A DNA stretch of 54,524 bases from a virus (taxonomy: Duplodnaviria > Caudoviricetes): positions 1 through 54,524 of IMG/VR virus record IMGVR_UViG_3300034357_000647; one strand, 5' to 3'. Both the position numbers and the translations under genes were made by a program. How positions within the stretch are numbered: position 1 is the stretch's first letter; every line of letters begins with the position of its first letter. The notes beneath the pieces were generated by a model, which made no database searches, was not told the DNA's origin, and saw only the letters and a list, made by a program, of their open reading frames with translations. Positions 16,318 to 54,524 of this stretch are shown here, piece by piece.

Positions 16318-17952
16318 ATGGCAGTTATAACATTAACAACACAAATGGCTGGTGCTATTAATTACACAGCTACAACTGCATCTTCAGCTGATTGGTCTTC
16401 AGTATCGAACAGTACATATTTTTATGATTTAACAGATAAATTAGTTCATTATAAAAATTCAACTGGAGCAGTATTAGAAATATATGGTTCAGCTGGAGGG
16501 TTAACATACTTTACGGAAGCTCAAAACACTTCAGCACCAAATGCAACAGTAAATGTTGATTCATTAACAGCAATAGCAAGTACAACAAATGCTGATATTT
16601 CTATTGTGCCTAAAGGTACTGGAGCATTTCAATTAGCTGTTCCAGATAATACTACAACTGGTGGAAATAAAAGAGGTCAATATGCAATCGATTTGCAAAG
16701 GATAAGAAGTGCAGCTGCTGGTGCAGCAAGTGGTGATTATTCTTGTATCGTAGGAGGTAGAAATAATACTGCTTCGGGAGAAAGAAGCATGATTTTAGGA
16801 GGTTCTGAAAATACAACAAGTGGGGCAGTAGCAGTAGCAATAGGAGGTTCAAATAATTCAACTGCTGTTTATGCTGTTACAATTGGGTATCAAAACACAG
16901 CAAGTGGAAACTTTTCTGTTGCTATGGGTAATTCTTGTGCAGCAAGTGGATCTAGCTCAACATCATTAGGGATAAGTAATAATATAAGTGGAACAGCAGG
17001 TTTTGGGGCAGGAAGTACAAACACAAATTCTGGTAATTACTCTGCTGTATTTGGACTATCTAATTCAATATCAGGTGCATATACTATTAGAGCTGGTAAT
17101 GGTAATACTGGCAATGCTGCTTATTCAGTAACAACTGGTTACAATAATGTTGTAAGTGGTTCTGAAAATGGTTGTTTCGGTTCTTCATCAACTGTTAGTG
17201 CTAATTATGGTTTTAGTTTAGGTTATCAAAATTCTGTTACTGGACTTTATGGTTTAGCATTAGGAAAAGCGTGTACATCATCACTAGATAGTGCTACTGC
17301 AATAGGTTTACGTTGTAAAGCTACTGGAGAAACTTCTTTAGCTATTGGTGGTTATTTTTATTCTGATTCAACAGCAAGTGGTGGTAATAGTATTATTGTA
17401 GGTTTTGGAACAGCTAGTAGTTCGTTTTCTTCTATATTTGGAAGTGGTACGTGTGACGCACCTTATTCAACTGTTTTAGGGTATCAAGGAAATGCTTTTG
17501 GTTTAACATCAAAAGTTTCTATTAGTACAAATATTTTCACGTCAGCAGGAGATTCTCAAAAAGGTATTGCAAGATATGGAAGAAGAACAACAGATGCAAC
17601 AGTTTCAACGTTAACAGCAAACGGAAATGCTTTAGTTAATCAATCAACTATTTTAGGTTTACAAAACCAACAAATGATTAGGTTTAAAGGTTCTATTACT
17701 GGTAAGCAAAGTGGTTCAACAAATGTTGGAGTATGGGATATTGATGGAGTTATAGTAAGAGGTGCTAATGCAGCTTCAACAACATTAACAATATCTAACA
17801 TTAATTTAGTAACAAATGCTAGTGGGTGGGGATCGCCAACAGTTTCAGCAGACACAACAAATGGAGCTTTAAAAATAGATGTTCAAGGGTTAGCTGGAAC
17901 TAATATACAATGGTTAGCAATTTTAGATACAGTAGAAAATTTATACTTATAA
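16318..17952 (+). CDS. Fibre/spike adhesin with YadA-head-like 14-aa repeats (may be chimeric)
   Basis: Repeats such as ASGNFSVAMGNSCA, ASGSSSTSLGISNN; shares segments with 52407-54524. Confidence 0.8.
   Translation: MAVITLTTQMAGAINYTATTASSADWSSVSNSTYFYDLTDKLVHYKNSTGAVLEIYGSAGGLTYFTEAQNTSAPNATVNVDSLTAIASTTNADISIVPKGTGAFQLAVPDNTTTGGNKRGQYAIDLQRIRSAAAGAASGDYSCIVGGRNNTASGERSMILGGSENTTSGAVAVAIGGSNNSTAVYAVTIGYQNTASGNFSVAMGNSCAASGSSSTSLGISNNISGTAGFGAGSTNTNSGNYSAVFGLSNSISGAYTIRAGNGNTGNAAYSVTTGYNNVVSGSENGCFGSSSTVSANYGFSLGYQNSVTGLYGLALGKACTSSLDSATAIGLRCKATGETSLAIGGYFYSDSTASGGNSIIVGFGTASSSFSSIFGSGTCDAPYSTVLGYQGNAFGLTSKVSISTNIFTSAGDSQKGIARYGRRTTDATVSTLTANGNALVNQSTILGLQNQQMIRFKGSITGKQSGSTNVGVWDIDGVIVRGANAASTTLTISNINLVTNASGWGSPTVSADTTNGALKIDVQGLAGTNIQWLAILDTVENLYL
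16974..17673 (+). repeat. 700-bp direct repeat, copy 1
   Basis: Matches 53825-54524 except A17058 vs T53909 (CTA/CTT, synonymous), read by eye. Confidence 0.95.
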
Positions 17953-17955
17953 AAC

Positions 17956-18303
17956 ATGAAAATACAAACATTAATACCAGTAACATATAATTCTGGAATA
18001 GCAAGTCAACAAACAGCAAAAGTTGAAGGAGAAATAATAATTGTAAGACAAGATTATTTAAGAGATAATTACAACTTCATGTTTACTTACAAAACAGAAG
18101 CAGGTGAACAAATTCAAACACCTTCTTCAGATTTTACATTAACAAAAGATGAAATCAATGCTTTTTATAATGTTGTAAAAGTAGGAGTACCAACAGATAT
18201 GCAATATTTTGAAACAACTCAATATGTTTATTATCTAGGCTTCAAAGTAGAAATGGCAAAAACTTTTGGTATTGAGCCAAGTGATATTGAGATAATTTTA
18301 TAA
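17956..18303 (+). CDS. Probable fibre assembly chaperone
   Basis: 115 aa directly after fibre gene. Confidence 0.6.
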   Translation: MKIQTLIPVTYNSGIASQQTAKVEGEIIIVRQDYLRDNYNFMFTYKTEAGEQIQTPSSDFTLTKDEINAFYNVVKVGVPTDMQYFETTQYVYYLGFKVEMAKTFGIEPSDIEIIL

Positions 18304-18305
18304 TT

Positions 18306-18461
18306 ATGGAAAAAGAATTAACAGAAGTTGAAAAAGCACAACAATTAATTGAACAAGAAAAACAAGAACGTGCTGAAGCATTCAAACAAGAATTAAATGC
18401 TTTATGTGAAAAATATAAATGTTCATTATATTCTGGTCAAGTAATGATCCAAGTTAACTAA
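18306..18461 (+). CDS. Small helical protein (51 aa), not in ORF track
   Basis: MEKELTEVEKAQQLIEQEKQERAEAFKQELNALCEKYKC...*. Confidence 0.65.
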   Translation: MEKELTEVEKAQQLIEQEKQERAEAFKQELNALCEKYKCSLYSGQVMIQVN

Positions 18462-18466
18462 CTGAC

Positions 18467-18497
18467 AAAAGCCAAGCATTAATCTGTTTGGCTTTTT
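18467..18497 (+). terminator. Intrinsic terminator
   Basis: aaaagccaagca-loop-tgtttggctttt. Confidence 0.8.
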
Positions 18498-18527
18498 GTT
18501 TACATTTGTTCAATAAGCGATTAAAGG

Positions 18528-18884
18528 ATGAATGCAGAAGATTATATAAAATTAGTAATTGGATTAGTTGTTGCTATAATAGGTTACTTTGTAAGAGATT
18601 TAGTAAAACAGTTAAAGGATTTGAATAATAATGTCAATTCTAAAACAATTAAATTTCATGATGAAGTAAGTGTTTTAAAAAGTAAAGTAAGTGCATTAGA
18701 ACAAGCCCACGATACTAAATTTGATAATCTGGAAAAGATAATCGATCTGAAGTTTACACAACAGAATCAAAACATTGAGGAATTAAAGAGTGCTGTTCGC
18801 CATGCTGAAAGAACTATTAACATGAATGCCACTGCCTTTGTTGATCTTTTAAAGGAATTAAAAAAAAATAATATAAATTTATAA
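18528..18884 (+). CDS. Lysis-module membrane protein (holin/antiholin-like)
   Basis: N-terminal TM LVIGLVVAIIGYFV plus coiled coil; TACATTTG promoter at 18501-18508. Confidence 0.6.
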   Translation: MNAEDYIKLVIGLVVAIIGYFVRDLVKQLKDLNNNVNSKTIKFHDEVSVLKSKVSALEQAHDTKFDNLEKIIDLKFTQQNQNIEELKSAVRHAERTINMNATAFVDLLKELKKNNINL

Positions 18885-18886
18885 CT

Positions 18887-18916
18887 ATGAAAATAATTGA
18901 AAATTTCAAGAAATAA
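18887..18916 (+). pseudogene. Remnant 5' end of the gene now starting at 19550
   Basis: MKIIENFKK* versus MKLIENLKDK; the two flank the HNH cassette. Confidence 0.6.
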
Positions 18917-18927
18917 CATAATTTTTT

Positions 18928-19032
18928 TATATTTGTAACGAGGATAGATAGGAGGTAATTAGCCTATTGACAAGTCGAAGCGTTTACGATTTCCTCATTC
19001 ATTTTTAAACGCAATTATTTAAACGCAAAATT
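18928..19032 (+). promoter_or_regulatory. Promoter plus structured 5' leader of HNH gene
   Basis: TATATTTG 18928-18935; gagga/tcctc outer stem; loop gcgttta complementary to taaacgc at 19006 and 19020. Confidence 0.6.
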
Positions 19033-19563
19033 ATGCTAAAAGAAGTATGGAAAGATGTGCCTGATTATGAGGATTTATATCAGGTTAGTAATTTAGGTAA
19101 TATCAAATCTTTATCAAAATTAGTTAAAATGCCAAATAACGGCTTTAGAGTGCAAAATGAAAAATTATTAGTGTTAAGTAAAGATACAAAAGGATATTAT
19201 TCAATTAAATTATGTTTAAAAGGTAAAGCAAAGTCATTTAGTGTTCATAAATTAGTAGCGATGGCTTTCTTAAACCACAAACCTGATGGGACACAAAAAA
19301 TAGTAGTTGACCATATTAATAATATAAGAACAGATAATAGAGTTGAAAATTTACAATTAATAAGTCAACGTGAAAACACTTCAAAAACAAAAAGAGGAAA
19401 CTCAATTTATACTGGTGTTTTTTACAGTGAAAAAAATGAAAACTATAAATCATCTATAAGATATAAAGGCAAAAGAATAAATTTAGGTACATTTAAAACA
19501 GAATTAGAAGCCTATAATGCTTATCGATATAAATTAAAACAAATAAATAATGAAATTAATTGA
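19033..19563 (+). CDS. NUMOD4-HNH homing endonuclease with AP2-like C-terminus
   Basis: WKDVPDYEDLYQVSNLG; VHKLVAMAF; VDHINNIRTDNRVENL; NLGTFKTELEA. Confidence 0.9.
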   Translation: MLKEVWKDVPDYEDLYQVSNLGNIKSLSKLVKMPNNGFRVQNEKLLVLSKDTKGYYSIKLCLKGKAKSFSVHKLVAMAFLNHKPDGTQKIVVDHINNIRTDNRVENLQLISQRENTSKTKRGNSIYTGVFYSEKNENYKSSIRYKGKRINLGTFKTELEAYNAYRYKLKQINNEIN

Positions 19564-19756
19564 AAACTTAAAAGATAAAACTCCAAGAAAACACAAAATT
19601 GCAGGAAGAATTGCAACTGCTTTATCAATCGCATCTTTGTCAATTGCTGAAAGTGGTATTGTAGATTCAAAACCATTAATTAAAATAGGTTTACAAACTG
19701 TATCTGTATTATTTGGAGGACAAGCAATGTATCATGGAAATAAAGTATTAAAATGA
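19550..19756 (+). CDS. Putative holin
   Basis: 68 aa with two hydrophobic segments, upstream of endolysin. Confidence 0.5.
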   Translation: MKLIENLKDKTPRKHKIAGRIATALSIASLSIAESGIVDSKPLIKIGLQTVSVLFGGQAMYHGNKVLK

Positions 19757-19836
19757 TTGATGTAACTCTTTTTTTTCTTGGATGTTTAATTGTTATATTT
19801 ATACTTTCAAAAATTGATATAGATGAGCAACGTTAA
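19753..19836 (+). CDS. Tiny membrane peptide (27 aa) in lysis module
   Basis: MIDVTLFFLGCLIVIFILSKIDIDEQR* overlapping both neighbours. Confidence 0.4.
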   Translation: MIDVTLFFLGCLIVIFILSKIDIDEQR

Positions 19837-20371
19837 AAAATACACCGATCAACAAATATTAAATCAAGTCAAAGAATTAAAAGGATTCAAACATTTCCCA
19901 TCTAATTTCTGGATTGTTGGGATAAGATCAAATGAAGATGCAAATGATGTTTATGATGATAAGTTTTATTTCTTTAAAGGAATAGAATTTATTTGTGTAA
20001 CTTCTGGAACTACCAACAAAGGAAATAAGGGAACAGCTGTAATGTTGGAAGGAATTTATTATGATTCTTATTCATATGGATTGCATAGAGGGAAAATGCC
20101 TTCATTAAAACAAGTGAAAGGAATTAGCTATAAAAGAGATTTCACAAACGATTTAAAAACTAATCCAACAACAGAAACTTTTTCAAATATTATAGGATTG
20201 AATATCCACGCTTGTTCTTATGATCTTACTTTAAATGTAGTAAAGAAAAATATTGGAGGATGGTCCGAAGGTTGTCAAGTGATGAATGACATTAAATTTT
20301 ATTCAGAAACTTTTATTCCCATGATTAAAAAGAATGGATTTACAACTTATGTTTTATTAAATGAATTTTGA
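19823..20371 (+). CDS. Putative endolysin (His/Cys, L,D-transpeptidase-like)
   Basis: IVGIRS...YDD, GLHRGK, GLNIH and WSEGCQV pattern; lysis-module position. Confidence 0.7.
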   Translation: MSNVKKYTDQQILNQVKELKGFKHFPSNFWIVGIRSNEDANDVYDDKFYFFKGIEFICVTSGTTNKGNKGTAVMLEGIYYDSYSYGLHRGKMPSLKQVKGISYKRDFTNDLKTNPTTETFSNIIGLNIHACSYDLTLNVVKKNIGGWSEGCQVMNDIKFYSETFIPMIKKNGFTTYVLLNEF

Positions 20372-20388
20372 TATTAAATAAAAAACAC

Positions 20389-20480
20389 TACATTTGTCAT
20401 GAAGCGACTTTTCTAGCAATTAGCTTTTTGATTTTTTTTTGATTCCGAATAGCACTTTATTAATTTAGAGTGCTATTTTT
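20389..20480 (+). ncRNA. Candidate small RNA (promoter, ~80 nt, terminator)
   Basis: TACATTTG 20389-20396, U-rich body, hairpin aatagcact...agtgctatt plus T run at 20448-20480. Confidence 0.4.
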
Positions 20481-20485
20481 GTTAT

Positions 20486-20689
20486 ATGAGATTGGATCAA
20501 TTAGAAATGGAACTTAAAAAGATTGAAATACCTAAATCAATCAAAATTAAAAGCGACTTAAATATTATAGATTGCCAAAAGTTTATTGATTCTCATTTAA
20601 CTATTCTGAAGGCAAATTCTGGAAACAAACGCTTCATTCCTTATTATAATAGATTGATATTATTTTACGAAAAAATAAAAAATATTTAA
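20486..20689 (+). CDS. Hypothetical protein (DUF6965-like)
   Basis: KFIDSHLTILKANSGNKRFIPYYNRL pattern recalled from Bacteroidota proteins. Confidence 0.55.
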   Translation: MRLDQLEMELKKIEIPKSIKIKSDLNIIDCQKFIDSHLTILKANSGNKRFIPYYNRLILFYEKIKNI

Positions 20690-20728
20690 TTATTTTTAAT
20701 AAATAGTTTTTATATTAAAATAAATGTT

Positions 20729-20736
20729 TATATTTG
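20729..20736 (+). promoter_or_regulatory. Early promoter; same TATATTTGT context at 22633, 24067, 25197, 29044
   Basis: Repeated TATATTTGT, in four cases followed by an A run and a start codon. Confidence 0.7.
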
Positions 20737-20751
20737 TAAAAAAAAACAAAT

Positions 20752-20997
20752 ATGAAAAGAGTTAAAATATCAATGAACAAACAATACTGGATCGAAGGTG
20801 TTGTTGCAGGATTCAATCCAATTACAGAAAGATTCTTAATTGCTTCGCCACAAGATGGAAGGTTGTTAGCTTATAACTTTATTTCAGATTTAGATGAAGA
20901 AATTATTTCAGAATCAGAACTTGAACAAATTAAAAAAGAACAGAAGGAAATCGCTGTTCAATCATTAAGTAATTTACGATCTAAATTTTCAGTATAA
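20752..20997 (+). CDS. Hypothetical protein
   Basis: First ORF after promoter. Confidence 0.7.
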   Translation: MKRVKISMNKQYWIEGVVAGFNPITERFLIASPQDGRLLAYNFISDLDEEIISESELEQIKKEQKEIAVQSLSNLRSKFSV

Positions 20998-21155
20998 TGT
21001 TAGAACTAATCAAAGAAGAAATTAATTACTTGGAAGAAAAATTAAATCATTTAGAATGCTTCCTTCCAGAAATGGAGGGAGCAGAAAGAAGGGAAGCAAT
21101 TTATGTTGCACAAGTCTACAAAGAAACAATTGAAAAACTTAAAAACAGATTATAA
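20997..21155 (+). CDS. Small hypothetical protein (52 aa), not in ORF track
   Basis: TAATG coupling at both ends; MLELIKEEINYLEEKL... Confidence 0.6.
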   Translation: MLELIKEEINYLEEKLNHLECFLPEMEGAERREAIYVAQVYKETIEKLKNRL

Positions 21156-21319
21156 TGAAAAAAGGATTTGACATATTATTTTGTGAGAAAATTAAAGAGA
21201 AATCACAAACAACTGATTCATGGGATGGAAACAGTTATAAACCAAAGAAAGAATTTGGATCAAAGTTTTTGAAAAATAAATTAAAAGAAATTCAAAATGA
21301 AAAAAGTCGCATTAATTAG
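21155..21319 (+). CDS. Small hypothetical protein (54 aa), not in ORF track
   Basis: TAATG coupling; MKKGFDILFCEKIKEK... Confidence 0.5.
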   Translation: MKKGFDILFCEKIKEKSQTTDSWDGNSYKPKKEFGSKFLKNKLKEIQNEKSRIN

Positions 21320-21527
21320 TTTTATTCTTTCAACTGGTTTACTTATTTATTTATCGATTCTAAACAGTCAAAAAGAATACCATTATAAAATAGTACACTT
21401 CAAAGAAGAAACAAGCTTAAATCAAAGCTTTGCTATCAAAAAAGAAAAAGAAATGATTGATGTTTACTCTTTTGATGAATGTAACCAAAAAGAACATCAT
21501 GGGAATTGTTTAAAATGTAATAATTAA
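21297..21527 (+). CDS. Hypothetical protein with N-terminal TM
   Basis: VALISFILSTGLLIYLSIL; C-terminal HHGNCLKC. Confidence 0.6.
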   Translation: MKKVALISFILSTGLLIYLSILNSQKEYHYKIVHFKEETSLNQSFAIKKEKEMIDVYSFDECNQKEHHGNCLKCNN

Positions 21528-21540
21528 AAATCAAAATAAA

Positions 21541-21762
21541 ATGAAAATCGAAATCAAAGCAAAAGAACTGGTGGAACAATTCAGAATGGACAACACTAGT
21601 GAAGGAGAAATGAGAGCTGTTAAGTGTGCTTTAATATGTATTGATGAGATCATTCAAACTTGTGCATTAGATGAAGATTATAAAGGTTGGGATAGATTAA
21701 ATTCAACACATCGTAAATATTGGGATGAGCTTTATAATGAAGTTGAAAAATTGAATAAATAG
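21541..21762 (+). CDS. Hypothetical phage protein
   Basis: KAKELVEQF...CALICIDEII...YW pattern. Confidence 0.7.
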   Translation: MKIEIKAKELVEQFRMDNTSEGEMRAVKCALICIDEIIQTCALDEDYKGWDRLNSTHRKYWDELYNEVEKLNK

Positions 21763-21786
21763 TAATAAATATAAAATCAAAATAAA

Positions 21787-22233
21787 ATGAAAAAAGTAAT
21801 TTTAAACATCGCATCTGTATTATTAGTAAATATATCATTTGCACAATGGATCAATAAAACTGTAGATAATGGATTTGATGATCCTTACAGAATTTGTTAT
21901 TCAAAACCTAACAATGGAGCAATTCTTAAATTAGAAAATGTAGAAGGACAAATTTCTTTCTATATTCAAGGGACTTATTTTTGTAGTGATTCTCCAATAG
22001 TTGACATTTCCTTCCTGGTGAATAATCAATGGATTAAATATAGCATTATGGGAATCAAAAATGAACAAAGTGATGTTTTATTTTTGGTTGATGATTTTGA
22101 AAATAATGAAATGTTTGTTGACTTTCTGAAATCAAATTCTGTTAAATTAAGAGTAAATGAAGAATATTGTGATACGGATTATTTCCAATTTAATATGGCA
22201 GGAAGTACTTCTGCTTTTAAGTTTTTAAAATGA
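21787..22233 (+). CDS. Exported hypothetical protein
   Basis: Sec-type signal MKKVILNIASVLLVNISFA-QW. Confidence 0.7.
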   Translation: MKKVILNIASVLLVNISFAQWINKTVDNGFDDPYRICYSKPNNGAILKLENVEGQISFYIQGTYFCSDSPIVDISFLVNNQWIKYSIMGIKNEQSDVLFLVDDFENNEMFVDFLKSNSVKLRVNEEYCDTDYFQFNMAGSTSAFKFLK

Positions 22234-22487: not shown

Positions 22488-22655
22488 TTAAAATGAAATG
22501 TAAAGGATTAAAACCAGGATCAGTAATTGCGAAATGTATTGAACCAAAAATAAATTCAGACTTTATAATCAACAATTTAAAAGAAAAATTAAAAAATTAT
22601 AAAAGAATGTTTATTTAATTAAAATAAATAGTTATATTTGTAAAAAAAAACAGCA

Positions 22656-23304: not shown

Positions 23305-23309
23305 TAGAA

Positions 23310-24038
23310 ATGTTTAGCGAGATTTTAAAACAAATTGAGCAAGAAGTTGGGGAGTTAGATTTTAACTCCCTTTCTTCTTATGAATCACCTTCTGATTTGA
23401 AAAGAACTGAATGGTTGATTAAAAGACGTGGAAGGTTTACAGCGAGTGAATCTGTTCGATTAATGGGGTATGAAGATAAACTTGAATTTCCAGAAGGTGC
23501 AATGACTTATGCAACTGAAAAAGCACTTGAAGTTTTAACCGAGTTCGGACAAGATCGAAAGATTAATTCTAAATCAGTTGAATGGGGAAATCTAACAGAA
23601 TCAGAAGCTTGTGAAGTGTTCATGGAAAGATTCAATATTACAGTTGAAAACTATGGAAGCAATCAAGAACTATTTGAAAAAGGTGAACATTTATCTTGTA
23701 CTCCAGATGGAATAATTAAAGATGAAAATGGATTTATTGAAGCAGGAATTGAAACTAAATGCCCAGATTCAAAAACTCATTTATTTTACATGGATCAATT
23801 GACAAATGAAACTTTCAAAAAACTATGCACAAAGTATTACTGGCAAATTCAAACTTGTATGTATGTAACAAATGCAAAGTTTTGGTACTTCATTTCATAT
23901 GATCCTGCCTTCAAAAAAGAATCGAATCGTTTATTCGTTTTAAAAATAGAACGTAATGAAGAAGATATTGCGAAATTTAGAAGAAGATTAGGCCAAGCAA
24001 TAAAACAAAAACAAAGAATATTAGAAAAATATAATTAA
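23310..24038 (+). CDS. YqaJ/lambda-exonuclease family protein
   Basis: WLIKRRGRFTAS, WGNLTE, CTPDG, ETKCP, YYWQIQ, FISYDP. Confidence 0.9.
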   Translation: MFSEILKQIEQEVGELDFNSLSSYESPSDLKRTEWLIKRRGRFTASESVRLMGYEDKLEFPEGAMTYATEKALEVLTEFGQDRKINSKSVEWGNLTESEACEVFMERFNITVENYGSNQELFEKGEHLSCTPDGIIKDENGFIEAGIETKCPDSKTHLFYMDQLTNETFKKLCTKYYWQIQTCMYVTNAKFWYFISYDPAFKKESNRLFVLKIERNEEDIAKFRRRLGQAIKQKQRILEKYN

Positions 24039-24106
24039 ATAATATTATTAATTAAATAATTATTTATATATTTGTAAAAATTATTAACATTTAAAAACAA
24101 ATCAAA

Positions 24107-25189: not shown

Positions 25190-25196
25190 TAATTTG

Positions 25197-43581: not shown

Positions 43582-43593
43582 TACCTTTGAAAA

Positions 43594-43818: not shown

Positions 43819-43826
43819 ATAGAAAA

Positions 43827-45803: not shown

Positions 45804-45806
45804 ATT

Positions 45807-46043
45807 ATGGAACAATTTAACGTGGAGATTCATAGAATAGTTGATAATAATAATGGAACTTTTTATTATGAATTATCTCCAACAAATTTAGCATTAAAAG
45901 ATTTTTTACTATATGGTCATGATGATGTAATAGTTGGAACTATTGCTGAAACAGTAGCAGTTGAAATTGAAACTCATAAATCTGAAATGTTTGATGTTTT
46001 ACAAACTTATTATCCAGATATTGCAATTAATTATTATTTATAA
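45807..46043 (+). CDS. Small acidic protein, probable fibre chaperone
   Basis: Directly after fibre. Confidence 0.55.
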   Translation: MEQFNVEIHRIVDNNNGTFYYELSPTNLALKDFLLYGHDDVIVGTIAETVAVEIETHKSEMFDVLQTYYPDIAINYYL

Positions 46044-46046
46044 ATT

Positions 46047-46529: not shown

Positions 46530-47044
46530 ACTTCTAAAAAATTAGATAAAGAACTATCTTTACTTCCGACAAATAAATTTACTCCTTTACTTTTAAAAGC
46601 CTTGTTCAGATTTTTATAATCAAGCAAGGCTTTTTCTTTTGAATTTCCTTTTATGTGTGGATGATCAATTAAATCAACTCCATGTAAAATAATTTCTTTT
46701 GCTCCAAGTTTGTAAGCTAAAATACACGCTACAAATGGAGAATTATTTGAATAACAAAATTTATCATTATCAAGTTCATGAAGAAAACCTCTTCCAATAT
46801 TAAATTCAATTAATTTAAAACTTGGAATCATCATTCCCCAGTCAACAATTTGAGAATAGAATCCTTTACATTTTGTTTTTAAAATAGTTTCAAGCCTATC
46901 TTTTGGGAATGCAAATAAATGATCAATACAAACAACATAATCAGTTTTATAATATTTATGAATATCATTTACTCCAATTGTAATATTATTATCTGGCTTG
47001 TAATATTCTAAACTATCACCTAATCCTAAAACGTGGACTTTCAT
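46514..47044 (-). CDS. Glycosyltransferase-like protein (sialyltransferase/DUF115-type fold)
   Basis: VLGLGDSL, TIGVND, DYVVCID, SPFVACILAYKLGAKEIILHGVD. Confidence 0.7.
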   Translation of the reverse strand: MKVHVLGLGDSLEYYKPDNNITIGVNDIHKYYKTDYVVCIDHLFAFPKDRLETILKTKCKGFYSQIVDWGMMIPSFKLIEFNIGRGFLHELDNDKFCYSNNSPFVACILAYKLGAKEIILHGVDLIDHPHIKGNSKEKALLDYKNLNKAFKSKGVNLFVGSKDSSLSNFLEVYQPF

Positions 47045-47098
47045 ACTGACAAAATTCGTTCATTATTAAGGGGCAAATATAATAATATCTTTGAATAC

Positions 47099-48211
47099 AT
47101 GATAGGACACGTTTATATAAAAGGACAAATCGGTAACAGTTACGATGAAAATGGAAACGTAACTGAAAGAGGTGTTGAATTGATAGATGTTGTTGAGCAA
47201 GTAGAAGGACTTGGTGAAGTTGAGCAGATAGTATTCCATATTAACTCACAAGGTGGGTATATTACAGTTGGGGAATCAATTGCAAATTTCATTAAAAGCC
47301 TTCCAAATGCTGTAACTATTGCAGAAGATTTATGTGCTTCAATTGCAACAGCTATTCATTTAGCTGCTCCATTGCAGAATCGTAAAGCAATCGAAGGAGT
47401 TTCTTATGTAATTCACAATCCTTATTTTCAGAATGTTTCTGGTGATGCTAAAAAGCTTCAAGAATATTCTGATTCGATTAAGGAGAATGAAAAAGAACTT
47501 GTTTCACTTTACGCAAATGCAACTGGAGTAAGTAAAGAAGCAATCAGTGGATTAATGGCAGTTGAAACAGCGTTAACTTCTGAACAATGTTTAAAGATGA
47601 AATTCATCTCTGAAATTTTACCAAAGGAAAGCGTGCAAATGGTTGCACTTATTTATAATGAAAAACAAAACGAAATGAAAAAACCTCTTTTAGAAAGAAC
47701 GAAAGAAGCTTTAGCAAAGTTGGGTTTATCAAAAGTTGCAGAAGAAGGAAACAATGAAGTAGCGAAAGCAATGACATTTGATACTGAAGATGGAACGATT
47801 GAAACTCCAACAGAAGAATTAGCAGTTGGTGATGTAATCACTTTAAATGGAGAACCTGCAAATGGTACTTTTAGAACTCCAGATGGAATGATTGACATTG
47901 TTGCAGTTGAAGGATTGATTACAGAATTAATTCCAGTTATGCCAGAAGATAATGCAAATGCTGAATTGGAAACATTGAAAGCAGAATTTGAAGCATTAAA
48001 ATCTGAAAACGAAACTTTGAAAGCTGAAAACAATACTTTGAAATCAGAATCAGAAGAAGTTGTTGCTGAATTGGAAAAATTGGCGAATGTAAAAAGTACA
48101 TACACACCACCTGCTCAAGCACAAGCATTCAGAAAGGTTGAAGATAACAACTCTAAAAAATCATTGAAAGAACAAGCTCAAGAAAAAAGAGCAAATTACA
48201 AACAAAAATAA
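47099..48211 (+). CDS. ClpP-type prohead protease fused to scaffold-like coiled coil
   Basis: HINSQGG, CASIAT, IHNP; acidic C-terminus; start moved to ATG 47099 just after TATCTTTG (47086-47093). Confidence 0.85.
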   Translation: MIGHVYIKGQIGNSYDENGNVTERGVELIDVVEQVEGLGEVEQIVFHINSQGGYITVGESIANFIKSLPNAVTIAEDLCASIATAIHLAAPLQNRKAIEGVSYVIHNPYFQNVSGDAKKLQEYSDSIKENEKELVSLYANATGVSKEAISGLMAVETALTSEQCLKMKFISEILPKESVQMVALIYNEKQNEMKKPLLERTKEALAKLGLSKVAEEGNNEVAKAMTFDTEDGTIETPTEELAVGDVITLNGEPANGTFRTPDGMIDIVAVEGLITELIPVMPEDNANAELETLKAEFEALKSENETLKAENNTLKSESEEVVAELEKLANVKSTYTPPAQAQAFRKVEDNNSKKSLKEQAQEKRANYKQK

Positions 48212-48225
48212 TTTAGAAAAAAGTT

Positions 48226-49308
48226 ATGGCATTAATTACACCAGCAGACTTGACTTTCAACGGAGAAGAAATCAAGCAATTAAGTGAAGCAGTTTTCGAG
48301 AGTGGATTCTCGAAACCAGAATTAAGCAAGTTCCACACAATAGTGAATGGAGTTGTTGCAAAAAAACAAATCGCTATTTTAGGTCGTTTATCTGGAATGG
48401 TTGGAAAAGGTTCTGGAGGTTGTACTCCTGCATCTGGAACAAATACAATTTCTTTATCAGAAAAATCTTGGAATCCTGCTCCAGTTTCTGATCGTTTAGA
48501 AGCTTGTTGGACTGACTTACAAGAATCATTCTTTTTATATGGTTTAAAAGCAGGAGTTCAAAAACAAGATTTGACTTCAACAGATTTCTTTAATTTCGTT
48601 TCTGATTTATTAGCAGATGCAATTCAAGAAGCAATTTACAGAATCGCATGGTTCGGTGATGTTGATGCTGCAACAACAACTGATTCTCCTGCAGGAGTTT
48701 TATTTGCAGGAACAGATGTTACTTATTTCAATAAAATTGATGGATTCTGGAAACAAATTTTTGCAATTGTTTCTGCAGATGCTACAAGAAAAACAACTGA
48801 TTTAGCTTCTAAAAATGGTCAATCTACTTATGCACTTCAAGAGTTCAATTCTACTGATACAACAAATAAAGTAGTAACAAATGCGTTACAAAATATGCGT
48901 TATGGAGCAGATTACAGATTACGTGAAAAAGCTAATTTAGTTTATGTTGTAACTCAATCAGTAGCTGATCAATATGAAAGAGAATTAACTTCTGCAAATA
49001 TTGCTTTCACAACTGAAAGATTAGAGAATGGAATTACATTATTGAAATCTGGAGGAATTGAATTATATGCTTTCAATTTATGGGATAGAATCATTCGTTC
49101 TTACTACAAAAATGGAACAAAATACTTCTTACCTCACAGAGCTGTTTTGGTTACTCCAGAAAACTTACAAGTTGCAACAGAAGAAGCAGGATCAATGGGA
49201 GAATTAGATGTTCATTTTGATAGAACAACGAAGAAAAATTACATTGATTTCTTATTTAATATCGATGCAAAAGTTGTATTGGATTACGAAATTCAAGTAG
49301 CTTACTAA
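48226..49308 (+). CDS. Major capsid protein (HK97 fold inferred)
   Basis: 360 aa after protease, followed by terminator; RIAWFGD, FNKIDGFWK. Confidence 0.8.
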   Translation: MALITPADLTFNGEEIKQLSEAVFESGFSKPELSKFHTIVNGVVAKKQIAILGRLSGMVGKGSGGCTPASGTNTISLSEKSWNPAPVSDRLEACWTDLQESFFLYGLKAGVQKQDLTSTDFFNFVSDLLADAIQEAIYRIAWFGDVDAATTTDSPAGVLFAGTDVTYFNKIDGFWKQIFAIVSADATRKTTDLASKNGQSTYALQEFNSTDTTNKVVTNALQNMRYGADYRLREKANLVYVVTQSVADQYERELTSANIAFTTERLENGITLLKSGGIELYAFNLWDRIIRSYYKNGTKYFLPHRAVLVTPENLQVATEEAGSMGELDVHFDRTTKKNYIDFLFNIDAKVVLDYEIQVAY

Positions 49309-49311
49309 TTT

Positions 49312-49343
49312 AAAAGGGGAGCATAAAAAACTCCCCTATTTTT
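49312..49343 (+). terminator. Intrinsic terminator
   Basis: aggggag-loop-ctcccct plus T run. Confidence 0.8.
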
Positions 49344-49363
49344 CACTATTAAAATTTAAAAAT

Positions 49364-49936
49364 ATGTCAACAGTATGTGGAGAGATTAGTGCTAACATTT
49401 CAAAAAGTTGTACTAATCCATTACAAGGTGGAACAAGAGATAGAGCAGTTGTAATAAACTATGAGGATGTTGCTTCAGTTGTTTACAATGGAACAAATAC
49501 AGAAGTTATTGAAGATATCGTTCTTGTTTCTGGTGCGGTTGCTTACCAAATTGATGGTAAAAACAACTCTATTGCACCAAAAGCTTCAATGGTTAAAGTT
49601 GGATTTAATAAAATGTTTGATCATACAGTAATGATGAAAGGTTTTGATATTTCACCTGCAACAAAAGCTCAATTGAATGCAATGAAAGACGGAAAATTCA
49701 TTGTGATTACTGAAAACTATTTCAGAGGTACAGCAGGAGAATCTGCATTTGAGGTTTATGGTTTAACAACTGGACTTGAAATGACAGTTATTGAACGCGA
49801 TCCAAATAATGCAGATACACAAGGTGCATTTGATTTCACTTTCTTTACAGATGTGAACAAAGAACCGCGTTTACCAAATTCATTATTTATTACTTCTTAT
49901 GCTTTATCGAAAGCAGTAGTTGATGGATTGTTATAA
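49364..49936 (+). CDS. Putative major tail (tube) protein
   Basis: 190 aa beta-rich, FEVYGLTTGL; own terminator suggests high expression. Confidence 0.6.
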   Translation: MSTVCGEISANISKSCTNPLQGGTRDRAVVINYEDVASVVYNGTNTEVIEDIVLVSGAVAYQIDGKNNSIAPKASMVKVGFNKMFDHTVMMKGFDISPATKAQLNAMKDGKFIVITENYFRGTAGESAFEVYGLTTGLEMTVIERDPNNADTQGAFDFTFFTDVNKEPRLPNSLFITSYALSKAVVDGLL

Positions 49937-49959
49937 TTCAAAATAAATCATTAATTTTG

Positions 49960-49990
49960 AAAGGGAAAGCATAAATGTTTTCCCTTTTTT
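49960..49990 (+). terminator. Intrinsic terminator
   Basis: aaagggaaagca-taaa-tgttttccctttttt. Confidence 0.8.
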
Positions 49991-49993
49991 ATT

Positions 49994-50524
49994 ATGAGTG
50001 AATTAGAAGAATTAATCGACAGAGTAAAAAGTTATGAATGCACGAAGCATTTATGGAGAACAAAACACGATTCAATTGAATTTATTGAAGCAAGTAAATT
50101 AAACAGATTATTAACTGGCATTCCATTAAACAAAGCTTTAAAATGTGAATGCGTTGAAGATTTATTTTTTATGTTAAAATTAGATAATACAAAACAAAAA
50201 GCTATGGAAAAGGCAAACAAACAATTTCACTTACAAAAAGGTAAAGTGATTCAAAGTTATGGAAACGATATTATTTCCGAACATTCAAGTGATGAACAAT
50301 TAATCGAAGCTTTAAGAAGTAATCCTGCATTAATTAAATTCTTTGAAAAAGTTCCAGATAATTGGGAACAAATAATAAAAAAAGGTGTTAGAGTTGTACG
50401 TAAAGCAAAAGAAATTGTTTCTGAAGTAAAGGAAATTGTATCTGAAATAAAAGATGCAGTTGAAGATGTAAAAGAAAGCACTACATTAGTAAAGAAAAGA
50501 AAGCCAACAGCAAAAAAATCTTAA
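49994..50524 (+). CDS. Hypothetical protein
   Basis: CECVED motif; KEIVSEVKEIVSEIK repeat. Confidence 0.7.
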   Translation: MSELEELIDRVKSYECTKHLWRTKHDSIEFIEASKLNRLLTGIPLNKALKCECVEDLFFMLKLDNTKQKAMEKANKQFHLQKGKVIQSYGNDIISEHSSDEQLIEALRSNPALIKFFEKVPDNWEQIIKKGVRVVRKAKEIVSEVKEIVSEIKDAVEDVKESTTLVKKRKPTAKKS

Positions 50525-50527
50525 TAA

Positions 50528-51874
50528 ATGGCAAAGGTAAAAGCGACAGCCGACAAGGTAGAAAAAAGAATTACAGCAGTAGACAATAAATCGCTTGGTA
50601 TTATCAATTATGATTTTGATAATCTTTACCCTCAAAGGATCAATGATATTGTAAACAATTCTGGAACAGCAGTTACTTGCCTACGTATGTATTCAAAATA
50701 TGTAATGGGTGGTGGTGCAAAAGATGAAACTTTCTATAAAGCAAAAGTAAATTCAAAAGGATTAACAGTTGATAAACTAATCCGAAAAATGACTTACAGC
50801 AAAGGAAAGTATCAATCAATTGTTCTTCATGTTAATTACAATGGATTGCTTCAAATTACTGAAGCTTCAATCGTTCCTTTTGAGTATTGTAGATTAGTTC
50901 CACAAGATGATGTTGATAATGCGGGAAAAATTGCAGTCTATGATGATTGGGGAAAGGTTAAGAAAAAAAGTATTGATAAAAAGAAAGTTGATTTTATAAA
51001 TATTTACAATCCTTCAAACGTTTTACAAGAAGTTGAAGAAGTAGGAGGTTGGGAAAATTACAAAGGTCAAATCCTTTATTGGACTCCAGAAGGTTTAGAA
51101 TATCCACTTGCTCCATATGATTCTGTTCTTGAAGATATGATGACTGAAGGACAATTGAAATTCTTTAAAAACAATACAGCTTCAAAAAACTTTCTTGCTT
51201 CACATTTATTGATAGTTGGGAAATCTGAATCGGAAGATGATGCAGAAGAATTTGATGAAAATTTAAGAAGGTTTCAAGGTGGTGATGGAGCAGGAACATT
51301 GCTTGTATTGGAAAGAGAAAATAATGATGAACAAATTGAACTTAAAAAAGTTGACATTCAAAATTATGATAAACTTTACGAATACACAGAAAACAGTTCA
51401 AGAGATTCAATTATTAAAAACTTTTTAATTCCACCAGTCTTATTATTAAGAACAGCAGGAAGTCTTGGAACAAGTAAGGAAATTTCAGATGCTTCGGATC
51501 ATTATAATACAATTACATATGATGATCGTTTAGTAATTGAAGAAATATTAAAAGAAATATTTAGTAAATTTTATTACAATATTTGTCCTTCAGATGATTA
51601 TTCAATTTTACCATTGAAATATCGTAAAGCAATTGAACCAGATTATTTCCAATATTACACTAAAAATGAAATTCGTGAAAGTAATGGTGATGCTCCTGCA
51701 GATGATTTAAAATCTGATACAACTTTACTTGCAGTAACTCTTGGAGTTGGTGGAACACAAGCATTGACTTCTTTGCTTTCTGATCCACTTTTAACAAACG
51801 AACAGAAGAAAGGTTCAATGATGGTATTATTTGGATTATCTGAAGCACAATCAAATCAAATGTTAGGATTATAA
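50528..51874 (+). CDS. Portal protein
   Basis: 448 aa; DNLYPQRI...SGTA, YPLAPY, F-L-IPPVL patterns of Bacteroidota phage portals. Confidence 0.75.
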   Translation: MAKVKATADKVEKRITAVDNKSLGIINYDFDNLYPQRINDIVNNSGTAVTCLRMYSKYVMGGGAKDETFYKAKVNSKGLTVDKLIRKMTYSKGKYQSIVLHVNYNGLLQITEASIVPFEYCRLVPQDDVDNAGKIAVYDDWGKVKKKSIDKKKVDFINIYNPSNVLQEVEEVGGWENYKGQILYWTPEGLEYPLAPYDSVLEDMMTEGQLKFFKNNTASKNFLASHLLIVGKSESEDDAEEFDENLRRFQGGDGAGTLLVLERENNDEQIELKKVDIQNYDKLYEYTENSSRDSIIKNFLIPPVLLLRTAGSLGTSKEISDASDHYNTITYDDRLVIEEILKEIFSKFYYNICPSDDYSILPLKYRKAIEPDYFQYYTKNEIRESNGDAPADDLKSDTTLLAVTLGVGGTQALTSLLSDPLLTNEQKKGSMMVLFGLSEAQSNQMLGL

Positions 51875-52404
51875 TGGAAACAATGATTAACATAAATGAT
51901 ATTAAGTTATACAAAAGTATTTCTTCAAATATCAACACTATAAAAGAACTTGATCCTTTTATTCTTGAAGCACAAGATTTTGATTTACGTGCCTTCATGG
52001 GAGAATCTTTTTATCTTGACTTTATAGATGATTATTTTGCTTCTCCAAGTTTGGTTAAGTATTATGATTTATGGGAAGGTCAAGAATACGAATATGGAGG
52101 TTATAGATATAAGCATGAAGGATTGAAAGCAATTTTAATTCATCATTCTTATGCACGTTTTCTTTCTCATACGAACGTTACTTCAACTCCTTATGGTATT
52201 GTATCAAAAACAAATCAATACAGCGAGAAGGCAGACGAAAAAACAATGTCAAGACTAATCCAACAAGCGAGAAGTTCAGCAAGTGTGTTCGAAGAAAGAG
52301 TTGAAAAATATTTGAACTGGCATTCTTCAGATTTTCTATTATGGAGAAAGTTAAAAGGACAAGAACAAAAGTATAGAAGTGGTGTAAAATTTAGACAAGT
52401 ATAA
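51874..52404 (+). CDS. Head-tail adaptor-like protein
   Basis: FILEAQDFDLRAFMG...GLKAIL...YARF...TPYG; after portal. Confidence 0.6.
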   Translation: METMININDIKLYKSISSNINTIKELDPFILEAQDFDLRAFMGESFYLDFIDDYFASPSLVKYYDLWEGQEYEYGGYRYKHEGLKAILIHHSYARFLSHTNVTSTPYGIVSKTNQYSEKADEKTMSRLIQQARSSASVFEERVEKYLNWHSSDFLLWRKLKGQEQKYRSGVKFRQV

Positions 52405-52406
52405 AA

Positions 52407-54524
52407 ATGAATACAGACAATTTAATTTTAAGGCAAACAGATTATCCACCATTAATAAATAAGGATGATTTTTTAGACAATGCCGACTTTGATAGTAACA
52501 TGATCAATATTTATGATGATCTAGTTGCTTTATGTTTGACAAATGGAGTTATTGCATACGATATTTCAACTGAATATGATGATTCAGTAATTAATTATGC
52601 AACTTATGATGGAAGACTTTGGAAATTCGTGAATGCTGTTCCTTCTGTAAATGTAACACCAGGAACAAATGAAGCGTATTGGATTGAAGTATTTCCAACT
52701 GAACTTGCTCATAGAAAAAATTCAGATACAATTCTTGATGAAGGTGGAACGAATGAAGTTACAGCTTCAGAAATTCGTGCTTTCATTGATGCAGGATTAA
52801 CTTCAACAACTAATCTTTCTCTATCAGAACAAACAGATGTTTCTTTAAAAATAAATAGTTCAACTGGAAGTGATGTTACCTTATTAGGAGCAACAGAAAC
52901 AACAGCAGGACTTCTTATTTCAGAAGATAAACAAAAGTTAAATCAATTATCTGGAATTAATAGTGGTGATCAAACTCTTGAATCATTAGGGGCAGAAGCA
53001 ACAGCAAATAAAGTAATTGATTTTTCAGTAATTGATAATATTACTTTTCCAACAACAGAAGCAGTTGCCAATAAAATTACTTCAGATGTTGTTGCTCTTG
53101 TGGATGCTGAACTTACAAATTATGTAAGTTTAACTTATGTAAATGAAGCTTTATCTGCAAAAGAAGATAGTTCAAATAAACAAACTGATCTTACAGCAAG
53201 TGCAACTAAATTTCCAACTGTAAATGCTGTCAATACTGGTTTGTCAACAAAGGAACCTACAATTTCAGTAGGAACAACTTCCCAATATTGGAGAGGTGAT
53301 AAGTCATGGCAAACATTAGATAAAACATCAGTAGGACTTGGAAATGTTCCAAATACGGATGCAACAAACGCTTCAAATTTAGCTTCTGGAACGGTTGGGA
53401 CAGCACGTTTAGGAAGTGGAACAGCAAATTCAACAACTTATCTACGTGGAGATAATACATGGGCAACAATTTCTGCAGGTGGTTTAACATACTTCACAGA
53501 AGCACAAAACACTTCAGCACCAAATGCAACAGTAAATGTTGATTCATTAACTGCAATAGCAAGTACAACAAATGCTGATATTTCAATTGTACCTAAAGGA
53601 ACTGGAGCATTTACATTAGCTATACCAGACAATACTACAACTGGTGGAAATAAACGTGGCACTTATGCTGTAGATTTACAGATGTTTAGAAGTGCTAATA
53701 CACAAGTAGCAAGTGGATCTAGTTCAGTATCGTTAGGAGCAAGTAATACTGCAAGTGGATCTAGTTCAGTATCGTTAGGAGCAAGTAATACTGCAAGTGG
53801 ATCTAGTTCAATAGCAATGGGAGCAAGTAATAATATAAGTGGAACAGCAGGTTTTGGGGCAGGAAGTACAAACACAAATTCTGGTAATTACTCTGCTGTA
53901 TTTGGACTTTCTAATTCAATATCAGGTGCATATACTATTAGAGCTGGTAATGGTAATACTGGCAATGCTGCTTATTCAGTAACAACTGGTTACAATAATG
54001 TTGTAAGTGGTTCTGAAAATGGTTGTTTCGGTTCTTCATCAACTGTTAGTGCTAATTATGGTTTTAGTTTAGGTTATCAAAATTCTGTTACTGGACTTTA
54101 TGGTTTAGCATTAGGAAAAGCGTGTACATCATCACTAGATAGTGCTACTGCAATAGGTTTACGTTGTAAAGCTACTGGAGAAACTTCTTTAGCTATTGGT
54201 GGTTATTTTTATTCTGATTCAACAGCAAGTGGTGGTAATAGTATTATTGTAGGTTTTGGAACAGCTAGTAGTTCGTTTTCTTCTATATTTGGAAGTGGTA
54301 CGTGTGACGCACCTTATTCAACTGTTTTAGGGTATCAAGGAAATGCTTTTGGTTTAACATCAAAAGTTTCTATTAGTACAAATATTTTCACGTCAGCAGG
54401 AGATTCTCAAAAAGGTATTGCAAGATATGGAAGAAGAACAACAGATGCAACAGTTTCAACGTTAACAGCAAACGGAAATGCTTTAGTTAATCAATCAACT
54501 ATTTTAGGTTTACAAAACCAACAA
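52407..54524 (+). CDS. Fibre/adhesin with YadA-head-like repeats, truncated at window end (not in ORF track)
   Basis: Starts MNTDNLILRQ and ends in frame at ...LQNQQ (706 codons); C-terminal part shared with 16318-17952. Confidence 0.85.
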   Translation, partial: MNTDNLILRQTDYPPLINKDDFLDNADFDSNMINIYDDLVALCLTNGVIAYDISTEYDDSVINYATYDGRLWKFVNAVPSVNVTPGTNEAYWIEVFPTELAHRKNSDTILDEGGTNEVTASEIRAFIDAGLTSTTNLSLSEQTDVSLKINSSTGSDVTLLGATETTAGLLISEDKQKLNQLSGINSGDQTLESLGAEATANKVIDFSVIDNITFPTTEAVANKITSDVVALVDAELTNYVSLTYVNEALSAKEDSSNKQTDLTASATKFPTVNAVNTGLSTKEPTISVGTTSQYWRGDKSWQTLDKTSVGLGNVPNTDATNASNLASGTVGTARLGSGTANSTTYLRGDNTWATISAGGLTYFTEAQNTSAPNATVNVDSLTAIASTTNADISIVPKGTGAFTLAIPDNTTTGGNKRGTYAVDLQMFRSANTQVASGSSSVSLGASNTASGSSSVSLGASNTASGSSSIAMGASNNISGTAGFGAGSTNTNSGNYSAVFGLSNSISGAYTIRAGNGNTGNAAYSVTTGYNNVVSGSENGCFGSSSTVSANYGFSLGYQNSVTGLYGLALGKACTSSLDSATAIGLRCKATGETSLAIGGYFYSDSTASGGNSIIVGFGTASSSFSSIFGSGTCDAPYSTVLGYQGNAFGLTSKVSISTNIFTSAGDSQKGIARYGRRTTDATVSTLTANGNALVNQSTILGLQNQQ
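53709..53831 (+). repeat. 42-bp tandem repeat (2 exact copies plus 1 degenerate)
   Basis: gcaagtggatctagttcagtatcgttaggagcaagtaatact encodes ASGSSSVSLGASNT. Confidence 0.95.
53825..54524 (+). repeat. 700-bp direct repeat, copy 2 (runs to window end)
   Basis: Matches 16974-17673 with one mismatch. Confidence 0.95.

Follow-up and report, generated by a model that had tools for sequence, protein, structure and literature searches.

The IMG/VR virus record IMGVR_UViG_3300034357_000647 is one contig of 54,524 base pairs (bp) with a GC content of about 30%, and the whole of it is referred to here as the window. Two fibre genes, one in the interior of the window and the other running off its right end, have in common a 700-nucleotide (nt) direct repeat, named R. 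The genes to the left of the first copy of R are attributed to a virus that we call A, and those between the two copies to a tailed phage, B. In the following, we describe the two fibres and their neighbours, the exchange of receptor-binding segments to which they point, and the way in which both viruses may have come to stand in a single record. Three genomes serve for comparison, namely, G001, an A-type relative of 64,176 bp, and G002 (32,190 bp) and G003 (36,552 bp), which are IMG/VR relatives of B. The features on which the argument rests are as follows.

14293-16026, + strand: spike or receptor-binding protein 1 of virus A, 577 amino acids (aa), cassette X; its aa 148-577 match aa 304-737 of the G002 fibre at 84% identity.
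16026-16316, + strand: 96-aa gene travelling with cassette X, putatively chaperone-like; 47% identical to a 97-aa gene after the G002 fibre.
16318-17952, + strand: fibre of virus A, 544 aa, with a 55-aa anchor, a neck, a variable middle, R and a C-terminal part of 92 aa.
16974-17673, + strand: copy 1 of R, internal to the record.
17674-53824, + strand: unit of virus B outside R (repeat spacing of 36,851 nt), with homologues in G002 and G003.
17956-18303, + strand: 115-aa gene travelling with the fibre tip, putatively chaperone-like; 84% identical to the gene after the G003 fibre.
18467-18496, + strand: terminator-like hairpin (a 12-pair stem, then a T run) at the right edge of the exchangeable fibre cassette.
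52407-54524, + strand: fibre of virus B, running off the end of the contig; 706 aa, and 798 aa once the unit is closed.
53825-54524, + strand: copy 2 of R, ending with the contig.

The two copies of R differ at a single position, which is A at 17058 and T at 53909. In 54.5 kb of DNA of this composition, a repeat of 700 nt with just one mismatch goes far beyond what chance would give. When the window is compared with itself at an offset of 36,851 nt, identity remains at background (10 to 21 positions in 50) left of about 16900, and amounts to 49-50 in 50 from 17000 up to the contig end. The second-best repeat pair of the window (246 nt at 84%) is located inside the same two fibre genes. R has the same codon phase in both open reading frames (ORFs), because the distances from their starts, 656 nt (16974-16318) and 1418 nt (53825-52407), are both 2 modulo 3. 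In virus B, its left edge falls within a tandem array of 3.2 units of 42 nt, coding for beta-roll units of 14 aa (53709-53843; repeat family D4), a position that favours recombination and assembly-graph tangles alike. The record stops exactly with the end of copy 2 because the whole of it is a single 54,524-bp contig, and its last 20 and last 30 bases are found again only at 17654 and 17644, respectively. No terminal direct repeat delimits the record, copy 1 being internal and the first 20 and 30 bases of the contig occurring only once. Two further explanations of the repeat were discarded: it is not the tailed phage's own terminal repeat, since the ends of G003 map near 32 kb of the window, nor does it belong to an invertible fibre segment, since the window repeat search revealed no inverted repeats flanking the fibre.

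The right part of the window is a complete tailed phage of a Bacteroidota host, of about 36.85 kb, forming one circular unit of 36,851 bp. Joining 52407-54524 to 17674-17952 gives 798 codons and one terminal stop (706 + 92 aa), and the unit encodes both terminase subunits (TerS and TerL), a tape measure protein, a head maturation protease and a portal protein. Two claims of the original prediction thus stand, that of 700-nt copies with one mismatch, in the same phase of two fibre genes with different N-termini, and that of a complete tailed-phage unit between them. G003, whose ends overlap exactly over 123 bp, was therefore closed in another sample, as a circle of about 36.4 kb. After permutation, 17674-54524 is colinear with it, the ends of G003 itself lying near 32 kb of the window, and it contains no left-type genes. 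G002 is 98% identical at the nt level over 36088-53127 (17 kb) and 98-99% identical over parts of 18.4-31 kb. Homologues of 28 of the 40 right-hand ORFs are found in G002 and in G003, and of 2 of the 40 in G001. As for the left-hand ORFs, 20 out of 25 have homologues in G001, in the same order, compared with none in G003 and two in G002, these two being the spike cassette only. The contigs on which the proteins recur also differ in size: for seven 90%-identity clusters of B proteins, the other members are on contigs of at most 37,291 bp, except for a 55-aa fragment of the TerL cluster on a 63,522-bp contig, while members of A protein clusters are on contigs of 42,820, 60,652, 62,876 and 71,507 bp. 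Only the 54,524-bp record carries cluster members of both A and B.

Alignment of twelve fibres revealed a common plan, in which a lineage-specific anchor is followed by a conserved neck, a variable beta-roll middle, segment R and the 92-aa C-terminus. Pfam beta-roll repeats are recognised in the A fibre (LbR_Ice_bind, 1e-9). The anchor comprises 55 aa in A, 355 in B as well as in G003, and about 140 in a third type, and the neck is 67-91% identical to that of A across anchor types, with 91% in B. At the DNA level, the necks of A (16488-16676) and B (53471-53659) are 90% identical; the two genes then diverge, with a length difference of 132 nt, before they meet again in R at 99.9%. In the lineage of B, the exchangeable cassette extends from about 53,450 to 18,454, as G002 and the B part of the window are 98% identical outside it and unrelated inside it, and 99% identity resumes at 18454. 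A part of the A fibre neck (aa 60-198) is also 52% identical to part of a putative tail fibre of cyanophage Cy-LDV1 (Cylindrospermopsis), which places the joint in phages of another bacterial phylum.

Sharing of these segments is seen outside the window as well. An independent contig of 16,781 bp encodes a 544-aa fibre with the A anchor, three substitutions in R (aa 347, 356 and 363) and identical last 92 residues, and a 1,652-bp contig carries a partial fibre of 448 aa with the same three changes. A-like anchors are combined with the same distal type in P0125 (75%, on a 90,507-bp contig) and P0126 (54%, on a 6,274-bp contig); in the latter, R is 41% and the C-terminus 84% identical, so that the two segments have had independent histories in the family. 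The own fibre of G001 is a distant homologue (48% and 36% in two segments), and the gene downstream of it is 44% identical to the 115-aa gene of the window. The proteins P0244 and P0249 are each recorded on a contig of 2,519 bp, one being a 92-aa protein that corresponds to fibre codons 453-544, and the other a 125-aa protein that corresponds to the last 125 residues of the spike. The 92-aa protein starts at the first base after R (17674), but since there is no other Met between codons 206 and 452, this start fixes no break point. If both proteins are on one and the same 2,519-bp contig, the intervening fibre must be disrupted or arranged differently there.

The spike upstream of the A fibre provides a second case. 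The cassette X region matches the tip of the G002 fibre and its downstream gene with 84.9% nt identity over 1,509 nt, and the 84% identity of the cassette between A and G002 means that this sharing cannot be an assembly artefact. Relatives of cassette X were found at 17 IMG/VR loci, 13 of which have the 96-aa gene type alongside. Four large IMG/VR records with cassette X (G004-G007, 56.8-122 kb) lack the A-type ATPase and capsid candidate described below. The presence of cassette X relatives in A and in records devoid of A genes implies that spike cassettes move between A-type viruses and several phage lineages. The comparisons support an exchange of receptor-binding cassettes between tailed Bacteroidota phages and the A lineage that would be both recent and recurrent. 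The receptor-binding exchange that the original prediction had read from the repeat is thereby found independently of the contig, in the 544-aa fibre recorded elsewhere and in the 84% identity of cassette X to the G002 tip. In all, two spike cassettes of A have close counterparts in one tailed-phage lineage, at 99.9% nt and 84% aa identity, respectively. Relatives of both spike types also stand side by side in other large phage records of IMG/VR (L036/L037, L040, L042, L046 and L048; 56.8-122 kb), and the two-spike cluster seems to travel as a unit.

With regard to the origin of the record, we consider it probable that two separate viruses of the same lake community, a piece of A and the full circle of B, have been joined via their shared fibre stretch, and the link from A to B would then be an assembly path rather than a molecule. 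In the mechanism that we propose, each fibre would have its own N-terminal anchor, a conserved neck, an exchangeable distal part and a small downstream gene. Recent homologous recombination, probably during co-infection, would have made the distal parts near-identical, so that they would be alike for a few hundred bases or more, perhaps for the full 700 or even further. The shared stretch being longer than typical inserts, the assembler would have entered it from A, come out into B, gone once round B and stopped at the shared stretch, a path that would yield the order A-left, R, B, R. Shared fibre tips would in turn imply a shared host receptor.

Several observations agree with this account. 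The start of A cuts a gene, the flanks of A and B have disjoint relatives and contig size classes, and the record ends in the repeat, all of which favour the assembler join that had already been put forward as the likelier reading. From 18454 at the latest, the contig belongs to B, being 99% identical to G002, and no part of the window contains homologues of the genes located after the fibre in G001. From the mismatch at 17058 and the identity to B at 18454, the switch from A to B would have taken place between 17059 and 18454. Given how assemblers behave, the end of the contig at the equivalent of 17673 suggests a branch there, and the shared stretch possibly extends beyond this position. When the shares of sampled words of 12000-21999, a region spanning A, R and B, were determined in 24 runs, three runs contained 95-99% of them, and these three are lake-water metagenomes according to their records; the shares are not taken as a sign of linkage or of habitat.

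Other observations, however, weigh against it. The high word shares in three runs indicate that A and B co-occur, which fits a real link equally well. The assembler kept distinct bases at 17058 and 53909; it thus told the copies apart near the left edge of R, and may have had pair support for its path. As the last 92 residues of the independent 544-aa fibre are also those of the window, the step from 17673 to 17674 is natural for A, and the place of a false join is not fixed by it. A near-identical second assembly of either junction was not retrieved: no IMG/VR contig matched exactly a 29-nt pattern taken from R at its right end, a search from which records very near the window were possibly excluded; scans with the fibre-tip protein yielded G003 (56%) and a metagenome contig of 2.7 kb (51%) and nothing else; and neither half of the window had a megablast match among GenBank phages. 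Finally, TerL of the window has no match in G002 or G003 (none in the three records searched), which makes B a mosaic compared with the other members of its lineage.

Among the other explanations, the one that survives best, although we regard it as rather unlikely, is that the near-identity is overstated: A would match B exactly only from 16974 to somewhere past 17058, and the rest of copy 1 would be B sequence or a collapsed consensus of alleles about 99% alike. The sole difference between the copies indeed lies 84 nt from the left edge, and the independent A-type fibres P0245 and P0246 differ at aa 347, 356 and 363 (about nt 17356-17406), where copy 1 is the same as copy 2. Furthermore, the exact 544-aa protein is recorded on one contig, and neighbouring A proteins on four to nine. 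Nevertheless, other A alleles still agree in 231 of the 234 residues of R and in all 92 of the C-terminus, and hence the recent exchange stands either way.

A true cointegrate, formed by a single crossover at R and containing A-left, R, the whole of B, R and A-right in one molecule, appears very improbable. The order A, R, B, R is the exact product of one crossover, A and B co-occur in at least three runs, and the one-base difference would fit each copy having kept the allele of its parental flank. Yet the assembly graph would be the same for two separate genomes, and the shape of the contig does not speak in its favour. Besides, judging from genome sizes, a molecule of 60-70 kb plus 36.85 kb would fit neither capsid, and the genes of G001 are missing from G003 and vice versa. 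With the exception of this record and the 55-aa fragment, no protein of the seven B clusters is on a contig longer than 37,291 bp. As for one phage genome carrying both the tailed genes and the A module as two virion systems, the presence of both on one contig and their similar tetranucleotide profiles (r of 0.92-0.97 between parts and 0.95-0.99 within them), which do not usefully separate the halves, hardly make it credible, given that the contig start cuts a gene and does not meet the end, that relatives of each part, whether complete or nearly so, are devoid of the other, and that the tailed unit closes on itself exactly.

Returning to the joining of two viruses, the A side of it (1-16973) is most likely a truncated structural module that extends from a packaging-type ATPase as far as the spikes and comes from an unclassified lineage of viruses with much larger genomes. 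It ends in the two spike genes, each followed by a small gene, and comprises upstream of them the following features.

2-163, + strand: 3' part of a gene truncated where the contig begins; over 47 aa, it matches the C-terminus of a 328-aa protein of G001 at 57% identity.
183-1034, + strand: HerA/FtsK-type P-loop ATPase, candidate genome-packaging ATPase (Pfam DUF87, E-value (E) of 3e-5).
1341-2306, + strand: capsid candidate of 321 aa, the larger paralogue; seven homologue clusters, and 36% identity to the G001 homologue.
2341-4188, - strand: opposite-strand block of three genes (89 aa; 281 aa, coiled-coil-like; 239 aa, glycosyltransferase-like), kept in G001 at 45-66%.
4591-5262, + strand: capsid candidate of 223 aa, the smaller paralogue, highly conserved; 71% identical to the G001 homologue.
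5345-9093, + strand: array of eight small proteins, seven of them with a C-terminal hydrophobic anchor in a hydrophobicity scan; order kept in G001 and in the contig L029.
9100-9861, + strand: conserved 253-aa protein whose translation contains an HExxH motif (LLHEYSH); identity of 67% with its counterpart in G001 and of 50% with that in L029.
10382-14283, + strand: further small structural or membrane proteins, most with G001 homologues.
13010-13495, + strand: LEA_2 domain protein (LEA_2, 2.2e-9).

The ATPase is 74% identical to its homologue in G001, where the 328-aa protein also sits upstream of it. Its family counts 418 representatives at E 1e-3 or better, and DUF87 is matched by 33 of the 70 aligned members. 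Against the PDB, the family profile retrieves HerA (8xau, 4.4e-4) and the packaging NTPase B204 of STIV2/STIV (2.4e-3 and 3.7e-3). Comparison by hhalign with the putative packaging ATPase of P23-77 gave a probability of 92.5%, with an E of 5e-7 over 154 columns, and with PRD1 P9 gave 20% over 25 columns, confined to the P-loop. These similarities suggest a role of the protein in DNA packaging.

The 223-aa and 321-aa proteins are paralogues (hhalign 94.3%, E 9.7e-8, 104 columns), and the A1 profile matches the G001 counterparts of both. Homologues of the smaller one, with identities of 35-98%, form 116 clusters and come from freshwater and Tara records, on contigs of up to 93,865 bp; from this conservation, the two proteins are proposed to form the capsid. 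The gene of the larger one follows that of the ATPase in the window, which is not the case in G001. Neither protein resembles a described family: the 321-aa protein has no Pfam, PHROG, NCBIfam or PDB sequence match, and the 223-aa protein none in PHROG, Pfam, NCBIfam or PDB profiles or by tblastn. Profile searches of both against the PDB found no chain below E 0.85, and none of VP16, VP17, P3 and P31 gave a profile match. Similarly, GenBank phages gave no tblastn match to either the 223-aa protein or the ATPase. The ESM Atlas model of the 223-aa protein is poor, with a predicted local distance difference test score (pLDDT) of 0.35, and the Atlas contains no model of the 321-aa protein.

Hydrophobic segments occur in 14 of 30 left-hand ORFs (10 of them C-terminal) compared with 4 of 41 on the right, and a PHROG scan of ten left-hand proteins gave no matches. 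Virus A is probably a tailless, membrane-containing phage, and its host probably belongs to the Bacteroidota. Its capsid may have a jelly-roll fold, in which case the exchange with B would be one between realms. The tailless virus of the original prediction is, however, no complete entity in the window, the left part being a fragment of a genome of about 60-70 kb or more. As for the other genes of the module, the only family match in the opposite-strand block is a weak one to Pfam Anp1 (E 3.9e-4, below the cut-off), the glycosyltransferase-like gene is also kept in L029 (46%), and the HExxH protein matches no family in the PHROG, Pfam and NCBIfam scans. One of the tail-anchored proteins, of 161 aa, contains an internal duplication of 55 nt at 84% identity (7484-7538 and 7565-7619), with the peptide VLTT.PVFTMP.YTPT.

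The contigs of A-type relatives span 60-94 kb and appear to carry no tailed-phage genes. In G001, the additional genes code for RecT, RusA, a DnaA-C helix-turn-helix (HTH) protein, an SbcC-like ATPase, an endolysin, an N6-methylase and a 1,680-aa protein with SNF2 and Zeta domains. A Pfam and/or PHROG scan of 29 of the 72 G001 ORFs of at least 100 aa, including 9 of the 10 of at least 350 aa, detected no terminase, portal, HK97-type capsid or tape measure; its 989-aa spike matched tail-spike families. A 16-kb block, absent from virus A in the window, separates the ATPase of G001 from the capsid candidates and may be an anti-defence island. The gene of the 1,680-aa protein (L020, 14501-19543, - strand), which has SNF2-type helicase domains and a C-terminal Zeta-toxin/AAA_33 kinase-like domain, is located in this block next to the N6-methylase and a ddrB-ParB domain protein. 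Scans of IMG/VR with the 223-aa-family profile and with the window ATPase returned one record each. A scan of species genomes with the 223-aa family found L029, a contig of 12,548 bp in a Saccharibacteria metagenome-assembled genome bin, with the glycosyltransferase-like gene, the 223-aa family, small membrane proteins and the HExxH protein in the order of the A module. Saccharibacteria were not retained as a host of A, L029 being probably a viral contig swept into the bin.

Modular exchange of tail fibres is known among tailed phages, as for the distal fibres of T-even phages with their chaperones, the side tail fibres of lambdoid phages, and the S-U genes of Mu, P1 and P2. The present case resembles it in three respects: the distal receptor-binding part moves with a small downstream gene, a conserved joint serves as recombination site, here the neck with 67-91% identity, and G002 and the B part of the window differ only in the fibre cassette. 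It departs from it in that A has no detectable terminase, portal or tape measure and instead a HerA/FtsK-type ATPase and membrane proteins, and in that the anchor is 55 aa long in A compared with 355 aa in B. The record also recalls ordinary repeat-induced chimeric contigs, where two genomes with an overlong shared stretch are threaded together and the path stops at the shared node, except that here the shared node is itself the biology of interest.

Among tailless membrane-containing viruses, A was compared with P23-77 (Matshushitaviridae) and with SH1, HHIV-2 and HCIV-1 (Sphaerolipoviridae sensu PMC5332951). The layout of A resembles that of these viruses, with an ATPase, two unequal paralogous capsid candidates, a run of small putative membrane proteins and variable spikes in this order; PMC5332951 describes the vertex and spike genes of sphaerolipoviruses as the least conserved, with sharp differences between HHIV-2 and SH1. 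The ATPase of A is homologous to that of P23-77. In contrast, the relatives of A have 60-94 kb and P23-77 17 kb, the capsid candidates show no sequence similarity to VP16 and VP17 of P23-77, and their genes are split by three opposite-strand genes, with the ATPase 16 kb away in G001, unlike the arrangement in P23-77. The hosts also differ, P23-77 being a Thermus phage and A probably infecting Bacteroidota. Another candidate for comparison is Salisaeta icosahedral phage 1, reportedly tailless and membrane-containing, with a Bacteroidetes-type host and vertex spikes. Its host according to its record (JN880423) is Salisaeta sp. SP9-1, and with 43.8 kb it resembles A in having a large genome for a tailless phage. 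The A1, A2 and A3 profiles found nothing below E 0.89 among its 415 six-frame ORFs.

If the two viruses are indeed separate, the record should not be counted as one 54.5-kb virus, and tools for completeness and host prediction are likely to misread it. Receptor-binding modules would circulate as common property among virions of very different types preying on the same Bacteroidota hosts, and host-range inference from fibre genes would then cross virus classes. With 116 capsid-candidate clusters, 418 ATPase representatives and contigs of up to 94 kb, the A lineage is a candidate blind spot in virus discovery. Tentatively, and going further than the data oblige, A can be pictured as an unrecognised lineage of lakes and oceans, made of tailless double-stranded DNA phages of Bacteroidota with an internal membrane and genomes of about 60-90 kb, which trade cassettes with tailed phages. 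Their capsid would be built from two paralogous small proteins and filled by a P23-77-like packaging ATPase, and the traffic of cassettes, each a tip with its chaperone, would be routine. Were this true, the P23-77-type architecture would have made a several-fold jump in size in a lineage almost absent from virus catalogues, and host range would move across the deepest divide among DNA viruses. A search of the literature, at the level of abstracts, brought up no account of a lineage or an exchange of this kind, which is no proof of absence.

The remaining features of the tailed phage B are listed below.

19033-19563, + strand: NUMOD4/HNH homing endonuclease (Pfam), with a second copy at 29945-30436.
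23310-24038, + strand: YqaJ-type recombination exonuclease (Pfam, 1.5e-18).
33857-34264, + strand: TerS, small terminase subunit (Pfam GP3_package, 3.8e-8).
34267-35457, + strand: TerL, large terminase subunit (PHROG 5653, 7.9e-40; Pfam Terminase_3C, 1.4e-15).
40795-43581, + strand: tape measure protein, 928 aa (PHROG 18891, E 3.1e-6).
43827-45803, + strand: distal tail or receptor-binding-like protein, 658 aa, parts of which are 39-50% identical to a 739-aa protein in spike position in G001.
47033-48211, + strand: head maturation protease (PHROG 133, E 5.8e-25).
48226-49308, + strand: major capsid protein candidate of B, after the protease (PHROG 38780, 1.9e-33).
50528-51874, + strand: portal protein (PHROG 11226, E 4.1e-80), with annotated portal genes under the tblastn matches.

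NinG and a C92 amidase are also encoded (Pfam and PHROG scans). The capsid candidate has no Pfam or NCBIfam match; it also matches a PHROG named 'virion structural protein' at 1e-5, its other PHROG matches being 'unknown'. With regard to the host, tblastn of the portal against GenBank phages matched 149 records, all below 60% identity, of which 146 are named for Bacteroidota genera (Bacteroides 98, Phocaeicola 24, Parabacteroides 15, Cellulophaga 7, Tenacibaculum 1 and Elizabethkingia 1), and the remaining three bear a name without host genus.

No tRNAs and no Rfam families were found. An AT-rich element of about 55-70 nt is repeated in the right part at 20676-20746, 22580-22650, 24025-24080, 25144-25214 and 28991-29061, and ends in TTTATATTTGTAAAAAAAAA, immediately 5' of the genes at 20752, 24107 and 29071. 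This family looks like Bacteroidota-type promoters, which would drive early genes of the tailed phage. The motif TAnnTTTG, which we take to be the Bacteroidota -7 box, is not enriched at a fixed distance from the ATG (2 found compared with 1.99 expected); on looser inspection, strong copies occur only in the early region of B. Finally, the two NUMOD4/HNH genes have in common a 67-nt stretch at 70% identity, which constitutes repeat family D8.

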